Of a DNA stretch of 64,000 bases, positions 16,188-19,376 are shown piece by piece. Location: the NCBI RefSeq assembly GCF_044324875.1, contig NZ_CP172187.1; one strand, given 5' to 3'. The notes below the pieces were generated by a model. The model made no database searches. It was not told the DNA's origin and saw only the letters and a program-made list of their open reading frames with translations. The stretch is from Escherichia coli. GTDB lineage: Bacteria; Pseudomonadota; Gammaproteobacteria; Enterobacterales; Enterobacteriaceae. How positions within the stretch are numbered: the first letter of the stretch is position 1; the number at the start of each line of letters is the position of its first letter. The translations under genes and the position numbers were made by a program.

Positions 16188-19100
16188 ATGGCAGTTCGTG
16201 GCATTAACAAGGTCATTCTTGTCGGTGTGCGCCGTTGAAGCGCGGTGTTTTATGGAGTGTTGCCTGAAAAGCAACATGGCTTAGTGGTATAGCCATTGCA
16301 TACTGTGGTTAGCCTTGCTTGGTAACAGGCTCGGAGATCCTGAAAAGGAGAGGTGAACATAGCATCCACAGAAAAGGGTGGTGAATATGGAAATCGTTAT
16401 AAGTATCACCATTCAATGCAAGATGTATATGGATAAACTGGGTTTGTTGAAGTCGAGATCTATGTGGGAAACAGGAAACCAATAACGCAGAACGATTGAA
16501 GCGTTATTCCCGTACTAGCACAAGAAATCCGTCCGACGTTGATTGTGACCACTCTAACGGGCCAGCTATTGATGAAATAGTTAAACGATCGAAAGACATC
16601 CTAAGTACATCGCATCTCCACACCGTGAAACTACGGGACTACCTAAACTGGATTTATACCCAGCATGGTAGCGGAGTCTCCATAGTACTCAAGGTCGGCC
16701 TGTAATGGGTTCCGGCAGTCCGCATTATACGGAAGCAGCAAAGGTATAAATCAACCGGAAGGAAGATGAAAGCCTCACAGTGCTGCGGGGAAGGGAGACA
16801 GTTGTTAGATACATCAATCTCTAAGAGGAGGGTTAGCCAATGCTGCCTGATGAACTTGAGAAAAGATTAGATGGAATTGAGGATGCTTCAAAAAAAGGGT
16901 ATCCAGTACGTAATCTATACAAAATTGCGTGTGAGCCCGGACTGTGGCTGCAAGCCTACGTGAATATACGGGCCAATGCAGGTGCACTGACTCAAGGTGT
17001 ATCAACAGATACCATTGATGGCTTTTCTATCGAAAGAGCAGAGAAGCTGGCAAAAACATTGCGGAGTAGAGAATACGTAGCGAAACCTGTACGCAGAGTT
17101 CAGATCCCAAAAAAGGACGGAAAAACCAGACCGCTGGGGATTCCAGGTGGAGACGATAAACTGGCGCAAGAAGTAGCAAGAATTATTCTGGAAAGGGTTT
17201 ATGAACCAGTATTCTCTGAACACTCTCATGGATTCAGACCAAAACGTTCGTGTGAAACTGCGCTCAGATCTATTCGTCCAGTCTGGAACGGAGTTAAATG
17301 GATCGTGGATGTTGATATCAAAGGTTTCTTTGACAATATCCCCCACAAACTATTGCTGAATACACTGGCAGAGAAAATTAAGGATAAGAATTTCCTGAAA
17401 TTAATCGAACAGTGGCTGAAGGCAGGATATGTGGACAATTGGAAATACCATCGCTCATATTCTGGCACGCCACAAGGTGGGATAATTTCTCCCTTACTGG
17501 CAAATATATACCTCGACAAACTGGACCGTTTTGTAGAACAGAATTTAATTCCTGCATATACAAGCGGTACAAAACGAAGAGCGAATCCAGATATGAACAG
17601 GCTGGCCCATAAGATTCATAAACTACGAAAGAAAGTAGACGGTATGGCAACTGATTCTGAATCAGAAAAAGAAGCCATAAAGAAAGAAATTGAACGACTG
17701 CTTGAAGAAAAACGTTCTATACCATCTCAGGTCATGAACGATCCAAACTTCAGGCGTATGTACTATGTTCGATATGCTGATGACTTCGTAATCGGTGTCA
17801 TCGGCTCGAAGAAAGATGCTGAACATATATCAAGACAGGTCAGAAACTTTATTACTACTTCACTGGGATTGGAAGTTAATGAAGCAAAGACCAGGATCCG
17901 CCATATCTCAGAAGGAGTTAATTTTTTAGGCTATGAAATCAGACAGGCAGATGCAAAGAAATTGCTGAAGCAGAAAATGCAAGGGCGGCACGCTCTCCGG
18001 AGATCCACCACAGGAATTGTGCAGCTCTTCGTTCCTGACAATATAGCCGCTAAATTTTGTCACCAAAAGAAATATGGCTGTTATGAGAATGTGAAGGCTG
18101 TACATCGTTCAAGTCTACAAAATCTCAGTGAAGCTGAAATTGTTCTGACTTTCAACGCGGAAATGCGCGGATTGGCGAACTACTACAGTCTGGCGCTGGA
18201 CATGAAATATAAATTATCAAAATTATATTTCATATGGCAAATAAGCCTTTTTAAGACCCTGGCGAATAAACGACGTAGTTCAGTGAATAAAGTCGCCAAA
18301 TCGCTACGGCAAAATAATGGAGATCTGGCTATTACCGTTCAGGCCAAAAATGGATCCCGAAAGATTGAGGTTTTCAAACTCAAACATGTCAATCGCAACC
18401 GAACAACGATTGTCGATACGGAACCGAGAACCGCACATATCACAACCCGCACAACAGAGATCATGCGTCGATTAGGGGCAAGGATCTGCGAGTATTGTGC
18501 GAAGACTGGGCGCTGCGAAGTACATCATGTCAGAAAGCTAAAAGACCTGAAGAAAGGTCGTAAGGCCGGATATAAACCCAGCTTGTGGCAACTAATGATG
18601 ATCGCACGCCGCCGGAAAACGATGATTTTGTGCGCAAGTTGCCACGACAAGTTACATAGCGGAAAACTACCCGATTTGAGACAGGAAAAGGGAAGAATAC
18701 TCCTGCAACCACCTGTCTCAAGCGGGGATTCTGCTAAATGAGTTTATCCCCAATAAGCTAGCAATGGAGAGCCGTATGCACTGAAAGGTGCACGTACGGT
18801 TCGGAGGGGGGGTAACGGTGATCTAACTCAAGATAAGCAGGACATATTCGCCATTTATCTTGAAAGACCACACGTACCCTACCCTACCGTCTGGGAAAAG
18901 ATCCGGAAGTCCGTTACATCCCAAACGGGGGCGCAGTGGCAAACCTGCAGGTGGCCACGTCAGAAAGCTGGCGCGACAAACAGACGGGGGAGATACGGGA
19001 GCAGACAGAATGGCATCGCGTGGTGCTGTTCGGCAAGCTCGCGGAAGTGGCTGGTGAGTATCTGCGCAAGGGCGCGCAGGTCTACATCGAAGGTCAGCTT

Positions 19101-19376
19101 CGCACCCGTAGCTGGGAGGATAACGGTATCACCCGTTACGTCACCGAAATTCTTGTTAAGACCACGGGCACCATGCAGATGCTGGGACGTGCCGCAGGTA
19201 CTCAGACTCAGCCGGAAGAGGCGCAACAGTTCAGCGGTCAGCCTCAGCCGGAATCACAGCCGGAACCGAAAAAAGGAGGCGCGAAAACGAAAGGCCGTGG
19301 ACGTAAGGCCGCGCAGCCGGAGCCTCAGCAGCCGTCTGAACCCGCGTATGACTTCGATGACGACATTCCGTTCTAA
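16188..19376 (+). CDS. ssb: plasmid single-stranded DNA-binding protein, interrupted by a group II intron (exon 1 16188-16226, exon 2 18888-19376)
   Basis: Exon 1 [13 protein letters not shown] behind AGGAGA RBS; exon 2 [31 protein letters not shown]...DDDIPF; joined product ~175 aa typical of F-like plasmid SSB. Confidence 0.8.
16227..18887 (+). mobile_element. group II intron (~2661 bp) with ORF in domain IV
   Basis: 5' GTGCG; domain V hairpin at 18769-18802 (GAGCCGTATGCAC TGAAA GGTGCACGTACGGTTC); 3' end ...CTAC; encloses the RT ORF. Confidence 0.85.
16840..18741 (+). CDS. group II intron-encoded protein: reverse transcriptase, maturase, C-terminal HNH endonuclease
   Basis: 633 aa; RT motif YADDFVIG; C-terminal CEYC...HHV...CASCH HNH motif; GAGGAGG RBS. 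Confidence 0.9.
   Translation: MLPDELEKRLDGIEDASKKGYPVRNLYKIACEPGLWLQAYVNIRANAGALTQGVSTDTIDGFSIERAEKLAKTLRSREYVAKPVRRVQIPKKDGKTRPLGIPGGDDKLAQEVARIILERVYEPVFSEHSHGFRPKRSCETALRSIRPVWNGVKWIVDVDIKGFFDNIPHKLLLNTLAEKIKDKNFLKLIEQWLKAGYVDNWKYHRSYSGTPQGGIISPLLANIYLDKLDRFVEQNLIPAYTSGTKRRANPDMNRLAHKIHKLRKKVDGMATDSESEKEAIKKEIERLLEEKRSIPSQVMNDPNFRRMYYVRYADDFVIGVIGSKKDAEHISRQVRNFITTSLGLEVNEAKTRIRHISEGVNFLGYEIRQADAKKLLKQKMQGRHALRRSTTGIVQLFVPDNIAAKFCHQKKYGCYENVKAVHRSSLQNLSEAEIVLTFNAEMRGLANYYSLALDMKYKLSKLYFIWQISLFKTLANKRRSSVNKVAKSLRQNNGDLAITVQAKNGSRKIEVFKLKHVNRNRTTIVDTEPRTAHITTRTTEIMRRLGARICEYCAKTGRCEVHHVRKLKDLKKGRKAGYKPSLWQLMMIARRRKTMILCASCHDKLHSGKLPDLRQEKGRILLQPPVSSGDSAK

Follow-up and report, generated by a model that had tools for sequence, protein, structure and literature searches.

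Can a plasmid gene that is cut in two after only 13 codons still give rise to a complete protein, and is the element that cuts it an active one or a dead insertion? These questions are raised by the ssb gene, which encodes a single-stranded DNA-binding protein (SSB), in a 64,000-nucleotide stretch of Escherichia coli DNA (contig NZ_CP172187.1 of NCBI RefSeq assembly GCF_044324875.1; we refer to the whole stretch as the window). An earlier note, made by reading this DNA without database searches, had proposed that ssb is split by a group II intron of about 2.66 kb, and that the early production of SSB would hinge on splicing. We find that the insertion is 2,661 nucleotides long and carries all of the hallmark RNA and protein parts of such an intron. 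It is very probably a mobile, splicing-competent intron of the mitochondrial-like (ML)/IIA type, E.c.I11, and occupies, in the sense orientation, its cognate homing site in the leading-region ssb of an F-like conjugative plasmid. The element is already known and very common, and in its mechanism it is an ordinary IIA group II intron. What seems to have gone unsaid in the literature that we searched is that E.c.I11 splits the leading-region ssb, and that a deep lineage of introns is devoted to that ssb site.

The split ssb gene

Exon 1 of ssb lies at 16188–16226 on the plus strand and consists of 13 codons, beginning with an ATG at 16188. The intron starts directly behind it, with GTGCG at 16227, and runs to 18887, where it ends in CCCTAC. 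On direct reading both junctions fall exactly where the earlier note had drawn them. Exon 2 (18888–19376, plus strand) picks up the reading frame at 18888 in phase with exon 1 and ends with DDDIPF, followed by a stop codon at 19376. The note had also expected a complete SSB from the joined exons, and this holds: the ligated exons encode a protein of 175 amino acids that matches PRK13732, the NCBIfam model for plasmid SSBs, over its full length (profile positions 1–175 of 175, 366 bits). The protein includes the N-terminal strand as well as the C-terminal DDDIPF tail that are found in plasmid-type SSBs.

Neither part of the gene would do the same unaided. The product of exon 2 by itself begins at PRK13732 position 15 and is therefore without profile positions 1–14, and the unspliced frame runs into a stop 3 codons inside the intron. 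The junction falls between codons 13 and 14, which we take from the general structure of SSBs to be codons of the first strand of the oligonucleotide/oligosaccharide-binding (OB) fold. Because none of the plausible alternative starts gives a complete OB fold, our reading of the frames predicts that any SSB from the window plasmid must derive from a spliced mRNA. The dependence on splicing that the earlier note had put forward is to this extent upheld for the complete protein; the qualifier 'early' is plausible, given the hairpin of the Frpo/ssi type that lies upstream (see below).

An alignment with an intron-less ssb, which the note had named as a check, shows that exon 1 does belong to ssb. 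The intron-less ssb of R100 is 528 nucleotides long, the same length as the ligated exons. Its first 74 nucleotides are identical to theirs across the junction, and the junction itself reads AACAAGGTCATTCTTGTCGGT on the 5′ side and CGTCTGGGAAAAGATCCGGAA on the 3′ side, as it does in the ligated exons. Because the two agree across the junction, the insertion of the intron into ssb is exact to the base, and without a target duplication. The interruption of ssb after codon 13 by a full-length, sense-orientation group II intron is far beyond chance.

Structure and class of the intron

The intron (16227–18887, plus strand) begins with GUGCG at 16227–16231 and ends with CUAC at 18887. These are the ends expected of a group II intron, and both are kept in all relatives. 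The Rfam model for group II domains V and VI (RF00029) matches positions 18767–18887 with 67.4 bits, compared with a gathering score of 40 (E = 4e-11), and this match stops exactly on the proposed 3′ splice site at 18887. The model recovers as domain V the same helix that the earlier note had picked out (18769–18802, plus strand), with an AGC triad at 18770–18772, a 2-nucleotide bulge and a GAAA tetraloop. Domain VI (18805–18885, plus strand) is unusually long and has a bulged branch-point A at 18881, 7 nucleotides before the 3′ splice site. The fold of this domain has a z-score of −5.0, and the RF00029 alignment agrees with it. The intron has a G+C content of 44%, compared with 58% in the flanks.

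An intron-encoded protein (IEP) of 633 amino acids is encoded at 16840–18741 on the plus strand, with an AGGAGG Shine–Dalgarno sequence 8 nucleotides upstream of its ATG. It consists of a reverse transcriptase (RT) with a YADD motif, a maturase X domain and an HNH endonuclease; the corresponding Pfam domains are RVT_1, Intron_maturas2 and AI2M-like_HNH, and not GIIM. The protein scores 310.7 bits against the NCBIfam model TIGR04416, above the cutoff of 300. The closest solved structure is that of LtrA (PDB 5g2x, E = 5.5e-119), to which residues 25–604 can be aligned. The PDB proteins of other intron classes match the IEP in the RT domain only, with E-values of 1e-41 to 1e-48.

The Rfam class models for domains 1–4 (D1–D4) have no match in the intron even at E <= 1, and the region of domain I was compared by means of local hairpins and by aligning it with an Ll.LtrB-type intron, at 40% identity. 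The placement comes from domains V and VI, the domains of the IEP and LtrA as the best solved match. Judged by this best PDB match, by the Pfam domains and by the layout of the exon-binding sites described next, the intron is a member of the ML/IIA group.

Recognition of the exons

The last nucleotides of ssb exon 1 provide an intron-binding site 1 (IBS1), UGUCGGU at −7 to −1, and a putative IBS2, CAUUCU at −13 to −8. The matching exon-binding site 1 (EBS1; UCCGACG, intron nucleotides 306–312) and the δ nucleotides (CG, intron nucleotides 304–305) share a hairpin loop that is closed by CACAA/UUGUG, at 16530–16538 on the plus strand. In the window this loop pairs with exon positions −2 to −7 and with +1 and +2. 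IIA introns have this layout, in which δ immediately precedes EBS1 and the 3′ exon is recognized by a δ–δ′ pairing and not by a separate EBS3.

As a reference we used an Ll.LtrB-type intron in a Lactococcus relaxase gene, whose exon-binding sites were located by their perfect complementarity to its own exons. Its EBS2 and its δ and EBS1 align with the same loops of the E. coli intron. The register of the EBS1/δ pairing was examined in nine introns aligned together with their exons, with the invariant CC of EBS1 as the anchor. The proposed register gives 64 paired cells, compared with 24–38 for registers that are shifted by 1–4 bases, and the introns pair better with their own exons than with exons permuted among the members (58 versus 50.5 ± 2.9, P = 0.003). 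Compensatory changes are seen at +1 (G-C to U-A), +2 (C-G to U-A) and −6 (C-G to U-A). Exon +1 and the nucleotide that lies two positions upstream of the invariant CC vary together, forming G-C in E.c.I11 and the Xenorhabdus intron and U-A in the others, and the nucleotide after it varies with exon +2. Exon −4, which is a third codon position, is often mismatched. Both the register control and the covariation thus argue for the EBS1–IBS1 pairing.

The EBS2–IBS2 pairing is tentative. Our candidate EBS2, AGAACG, lies in the loop of the hairpin AAUAACGC/GCGUUAUU (16489–16494, plus strand; intron nucleotides 263–268) and pairs with exon −13 to −8 at 5 of the 6 positions. It shows no co-variation with the exons, despite the support from the Lactococcus comparison. 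An AGGA at intron nucleotides 249–252 was also tried as EBS2, and it does not co-vary with the exons either.

The chromosomal ssb of E. coli K-12 could pair with EBS1 at −2 to −7 and could not pair with δ, because it has an Asn codon (AAT) where the plasmid gene has an Arg codon (CGT). This missing δ pairing may help to spare the essential chromosomal gene.

A known and widespread element

How common is this arrangement? The copy in pEC958, the reference plasmid of sequence type 131 (ST131), is 99.3% identical to the window intron over 2,661 nucleotides; it sits at the same ssb position and encodes the same IEP (WP_000936285.1). The only group II intron of pEC958 goes by its name in the bacterial group II intron database, E.c.I11, and has been listed as a mobile element, with ssb unmentioned (Phan et al. 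2015, PMC4398462). We take the name from this paper, the only one in the literature searched in which we found it; by sequence the window intron is variant A of E.c.I11 (variants are described below). The earlier note's impression of novelty was consequently overstated, as the intron is a catalogued one that is present in hundreds of sequenced plasmids. Where the note said that it had not seen splicing dependence described for ssb, it fares better: the intron itself is known, and we found no paper, in the literature searched for this link, which says that it splits ssb. In papers on pHN7A8- and pGUE-NDM-type plasmids the backbone is shown with a 'group II intron' whose host gene is left unnamed; this intron may be E.c.I11.

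In PLSDB the intron is found in 514 plasmids, 494 of them at >= 99% identity and 426 nearly full length. Among 5,426 complete E. coli genomes it is present in 436, where plasmids account for 564 of its places and chromosomes for the other 9. It is almost always in ssb: when the query spans the 3′ junction, the intron is seen to run straight on into ssb exon 2 in 477 PLSDB plasmids. With a query across the 5′ junction, the intron is found in 431 of the 4,345 plasmids that share the exon 1 region, which amounts to an occupancy of about 10% among enterobacterial plasmids with this ssb. The carriers include IncF, IncI1/B/O and IncI-gamma/K plasmids. If our reading of the frames is right, then about 8% of the complete E. 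coli genomes contain a plasmid ssb that can work only after RNA splicing. A scan of species-representative genomes with the first 31 nucleotides of the intron gave no match; a metagenome scan with a 38-nucleotide pattern, whose last base differs between the variants, gave 4 copies, of variant A only.

Some side observations concern individual plasmids. The stretches of the ssb locus that were searched (15977–19137) match NZ_CP022732.1, an E. coli plasmid of 113,162 bp that came from human urine, at 100%. A truncated form of the locus is present in NZ_CP041299.1 (186127–186720) and in about 50–80 similar plasmids, where intron nucleotides 2068–2661 (the last 594 nucleotides) and ssb exon 2 abut IS1A. 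These remnants are found in IncFIB/FIC plasmids of about 190 kb; they have lost exon 1 and the promoter, and their open reading frame (ORF) is annotated as ssb or as an 'HNH endonuclease'.

The annotation of the full-length locus is misleading. RefSeq records give an ltrA gene and an ssb coding sequence that starts from a CTG equivalent to 18891, four bases into exon 2. Newer records add exon 1 as an 'incomplete' ssb pseudogene that ends at the intron boundary. Hundreds of plasmid records, those of reference ST131 plasmids included, therefore hold a CTG-start 'ssb' and an unconnected 'ltrA', where the real gene is a two-exon ssb.

Two variants of the intron

The rarer variant A, which is found in the window, and the common form, variant B, differ at 18 positions; the window and pEC958 copies likewise differ at 18 positions, 2 of them in EBS1. 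All 7 of the differences in the ORF are synonymous, so that the 633-amino acid protein is identical, which points to selection for the function of the IEP. The two differences in the 7-nucleotide EBS1 (intron 306–312, window 16532–16538; hypergeometric P = 9e-4) change UCCGACG in variant A to CCCUACG in variant B.

One of these two positions, intron nucleotide 309, faces exon position −4. We compared it with the exon in a sample of 20 copies, which were drawn across identity bands and are not independent of each other. Variant A is found with a C at −4, which pairs with G309, in 8 of its 9 copies, and variant B with an A or G, which pairs with U309, in 7 of 11. In this non-independent sample Fisher's exact test gives P = 0.01. 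A strict one-to-one match between intron variant and ssb allele was considered and rejected, as some copies of variant B have C or T at −4 and one copy of variant A has G. We regard the association as a statistical one, and as supporting evidence only.

The introns of the window plasmid, which is F-like, and of an IncI-gamma/K plasmid have 0 differences in 2,661 nucleotides. The flanks are a different matter: identity between the two plasmids is 53% in the 300 nucleotides upstream and 80% in the 500 nucleotides downstream, with the first mismatches at −1 and +9. This pattern fits insertion into separate ssb alleles, and not a transfer of the intron along with its flanks.

A lineage of introns in ssb

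Is ssb a chance target of this one element? A search with the IEP found relatives in Xenorhabdus budapestensis (84% identity), in a group at 76–64% (P0004–P0009 and P0011) that comes mostly from metagenomes, and in others at 55–49%. Exon 2 of ssb lies directly at the 3′ splice site in the relatives at 84, 75, 74, 72, 67, 66, 54 and 50% IEP identity. Down to 66%, this is true of every relative whose contig extends past the 3′ splice site (P0002, P0004, P0005, P0006, P0007 and P0008). A homologous 5′ junction, with NKV-x-L/I-x-G before the intron and x-L/V-G after it, can be read in the six relatives whose contigs reach it. In one further relative (L033, 76%) the junction with ssb exon 1 is kept, the IEP is frameshifted and exon 2 is lost.

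The conservation of the site is evident when the residues around the intron are compared. In the window (IEP 100% by definition) the 13-codon exon 1 is followed by the 10-residue start of exon 2 at this homologous site. The corresponding residues are MSSRGVNKVILVG and HLGQDPEIRY in Xenorhabdus (L025, 84%), and in three metagenomes they are MASVNKVTLIG and NVGAAPETRS (L026, 75%), MPSVNKVIIVG and NLGRDPEIRY (L028, 74%), and MASVNKVIIVG and NLGRDPETRY (L031, 67%). At a greater distance they are MLNKIMLIG and NLGKDPELQV in a member of the Ktedonobacteraceae (Chloroflexota; L036, 54%), and MATVNQVTLIG and NLGKDPEVLK in an element that has AcaB, SLT and RadC genes (L041, 50%).

Target switches do occur, because two of the relatives sit outside ssb. 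The relative with IEP P0012 (55%; L034 and L035, both metagenomes) has inserted into the RT gene of a second group II intron, between TPQGG and V, in a twintron-like arrangement. The one with IEP P0017 (L040, 53%) splits a gene for a single-strand-annealing protein of the Rad52/Rad22 family, between WVTKWDG and AENTDIEG; this host gene is another gene of a mobile element that handles single-stranded DNA. In the X. budapestensis contig (NIBS01000026.1), genes for AcaB, topoisomerase III and DUF3577 lie upstream of the split ssb, and a DDE transposase gene and a Hachiman-like pair of genes, for HamA and a DEAD-helicase, lie downstream.

The leading region

The window comes from an F-like conjugative plasmid, because Rfam models find the traJ 5′ untranslated region (UTR) with FinP (27181–27290), sok (22997–23173) and antisense RNAs to traI, traG and pHK01_035. 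A sequence resembling the nic motif of an origin of transfer (oriT), GTAGTGTGTGGTGCTTTT, lies at 26366–26383 on the minus strand, where the leading region gives way to the traJ 5′ UTR and some 10 kb away from ssb. It has 2 mismatches to the F-type nic motif, and 0.08 chance matches are expected. Since this motif is on the minus strand, the minus strand is the one that is transferred; the genes of the leading region are read from it, and it is the template strand of ssb.

Single-strand promoters of the Frpo/ssi type are hairpins of the leading region on the transferred strand, known from F and ColIb-P9, and their stems carry promoter-like −35 and −10 elements. A candidate for such a promoter, found by self-BLAST and folding, lies directly upstream of ssb on the minus strand (15850–16187, about 320 nucleotides). 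The window holds three direct copies of it (12493–12796, 15850–16187 and 23913–24229), which are 89.5–99.7% identical, and each of them is a long imperfect inverted repeat. As single-stranded DNA, the minus strand of the copy upstream of ssb folds into a hairpin of about 260 nucleotides (−87.3 kcal/mol, z = −7.3). Plasmids in PLSDB contain this upstream region about 3 times each. By analogy with the known elements, the three copies are probably Frpo/ssi-type promoters that head three leading-region operons. Genes of the leading region, ssb among them, are currently investigated as the earliest functions to be switched on in a new host.

The hexanucleotide CTGCTA is repeated perfectly, 10.8 times, at 15461–15525, between a methyltransferase-like ORF and the upstream element of ssb. 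This array gives rise to poly-Leu and poly-(Ala-Thr) runs in overlapping ORFs.

Proposed mechanism and alternative explanations

How might such an intron live in ssb? We propose that an ssb pre-mRNA that includes the intron would be made, from the Frpo-like promoter when the plasmid arrives in a recipient, and to some extent also in cells where it is already established. The IEP would be translated on this pre-mRNA from its own AGGAGG-ATG start and would help splicing, yielding an mRNA for full-length SSB. The excised particle of lariat and IEP could then reverse-splice into intron-less ssb alleles of co-resident plasmids, where the target would be recognized via EBS1, δ and perhaps EBS2, together with protein contacts. 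Target-primed reverse transcription would copy the intron in, with the nick made by the HNH domain serving as the primer. Because the ssb target is conserved, carried by many conjugative elements and probably dispensable, it would make an abundant and safe landing site.

A broader proposal, which we hold only tentatively, is that E.c.I11 belongs to an old IIA lineage that has specialized on one conserved ssb site (NKV-x-L-x-G before the intron, x-L-G after it) in conjugative and integrative elements, from Proteobacteria to Chloroflexota, and that retunes its EBS1 and δ to each allele. The burst of expression from single-strand promoters upon arrival would lead to invasion of the resident ssb, with conjugation as the transmission route, and early SSB would depend on splicing in about one-tenth of clinical IncF and IncI plasmids. 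In the literature searched we found neither the specialization on ssb nor a coupling between conjugation and the intron described.

Several observations weigh against an active intron. We infer both splicing and mobility from intact motifs and from comparative evidence. In the window, exon −1 faces EBS1 as a U·U mismatch, and many variant B copies reside in ssb alleles that are mismatched at −4 and −1; such mismatches could lower the efficiency of splicing in some contexts. EBS2 can be assigned only tentatively, because the candidate loop is nearly invariant across relatives whose exons differ. The step of induction upon entry carries the assumption that the upstream hairpin works as an Frpo-type promoter. 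Finally, IS1-truncated remnants without exon 1 persist in many large plasmids. Because these remnants are common, the plasmid ssb appears to be dispensable, and the arrangement would then also be tolerated without any splicing.

Could the intron simply be a dead insertion, the relic of a past landing in ssb that now does no more than inactivate the gene? The plasmids would then make do with the chromosomal SSB of the host, and the abundance of the intron would reflect the clonal success of its plasmids, such as the IncF plasmids of ST131, and the recombination of their backbones. The apparent dispensability of the plasmid ssb fits this explanation, as do the EBS1–IBS1 mismatches at −1 and often at −4, the status of splicing here as a prediction from sequence, and the treatment of ssb by annotation pipelines as broken or truncated. 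We nevertheless think it unlikely, since the catalytic and protein motifs are all intact and the variants differ by 7 synonymous and 0 non-synonymous changes in an ORF of 1.9 kb. A dead insertion also sits poorly with identical introns in ssb alleles whose flanks are 53–80% identical and differ from 1 nucleotide off the junction, with identical introns across IncF, IncI1/B/O and IncI-gamma/K backbones, and with compensatory EBS1/δ changes in a lineage whose members have kept to one ssb site even where protein identity falls to 50%. Even less probable, in our judgement, is that maturase-assisted splicing serves to delay or limit SSB after entry, so that the intron is kept for the benefit of the plasmid and not as a selfish element. 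Here one can point to the position of ssb directly behind a hairpin that resembles a single-strand promoter, to the stable association of the intron with successful epidemic plasmids and to the conservation of the ssb site over long evolutionary distances. However, about 90% of the plasmids with the same ssb are without the intron, and a patchy distribution combined with near identity in sequence is what a recent selfish invasion leaves behind. Early IncF33 plasmids lack a backbone group II intron, perhaps E.c.I11, that later ones carry (PMC10654068). The sequence also gives no pointer to regulated splicing. A mobile, splicing-competent E.c.I11 remains our preferred explanation.

Comparison with known systems

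The nearest well-known system is Ll.LtrB of Lactococcus lactis. This group IIA intron splits ltrB, the relaxase gene of conjugative elements, whose product requires splicing. The two introns have in common the protein architecture (RT, X, D and En), the 5′ sequence GUGCGCC, the candidate EBS2 and δ+EBS1 in equivalent loops, and a δ that adjoins EBS1. Each of them is inserted in the sense orientation, and each has as its host a gene through which a conjugative element processes DNA. They are distant nonetheless, as the best match to an LtrA-type protein of a Lactococcus plasmid has only about 38% protein identity. E.c.I11 further differs in its host gene, which is the leading-region ssb and not a relaxase gene, in its hosts, which are Enterobacteriaceae, and in its much longer domain VI; it is also known only as sequence.

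The group II introns of bacteria are generally considered to keep clear of conserved protein-coding genes. In this case an entire lineage appears to home to one conserved block of codons within a single gene family, and its exon-binding site visibly co-evolves. The strategy is that of the homing group I introns and inteins of recA, nrd and DNA polymerase genes, namely a strongly conserved coding target, which is found in many diverged alleles, and a self-removal, from the RNA or the protein, that spares the host gene; in contrast to these, E.c.I11 would move by retrohoming, through reverse splicing and reverse transcription. The splitting of ssb and the dedicated lineage lift the element above a routine mobile-element call, although it is still a known kind of system. 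The lineage offers a natural data set on the drift of target specificity, and its EBS1/δ variants could inform the design of targetrons.

Other mobile group II introns are known from E. coli plasmids and mobile DNA, including E.c.I5 (EcI5) and the IS-targeting E.c.I1–4 and E.c.I9. Of these, E.c.I2, E.c.I3, E.c.I4 and E.c.I9 home into insertion sequences or Rhs-associated elements (PMC3522654). None of the introns named here is in ssb. We considered and rejected an identity of the window intron with E.c.I4, which targets IS3-family elements, and with E.c.I5, a group IIB1 intron of the CL1 class on pO157, which is 2.4 kb long and lies at another locus (NC_002128, 35666–38071), not in ssb. A group II intron that jumped into an IncI-gamma leading region in an evolution experiment (PNAS 2023, PMC10104558) was also considered as E.c.I11. 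It proved to be a different element, which lies on the opposite strand and disrupts yffB upstream of ssi3, next to an intact ssb of 175 amino acids. Leading regions do seem to attract more than one intron, because this one also lands there, just upstream of the ssi3 promoter and ssb. During the evolution of p1ESBL and p15ESBL it made new junctions in the leading region of a second plasmid, in two replicate lines (PMC10104558).

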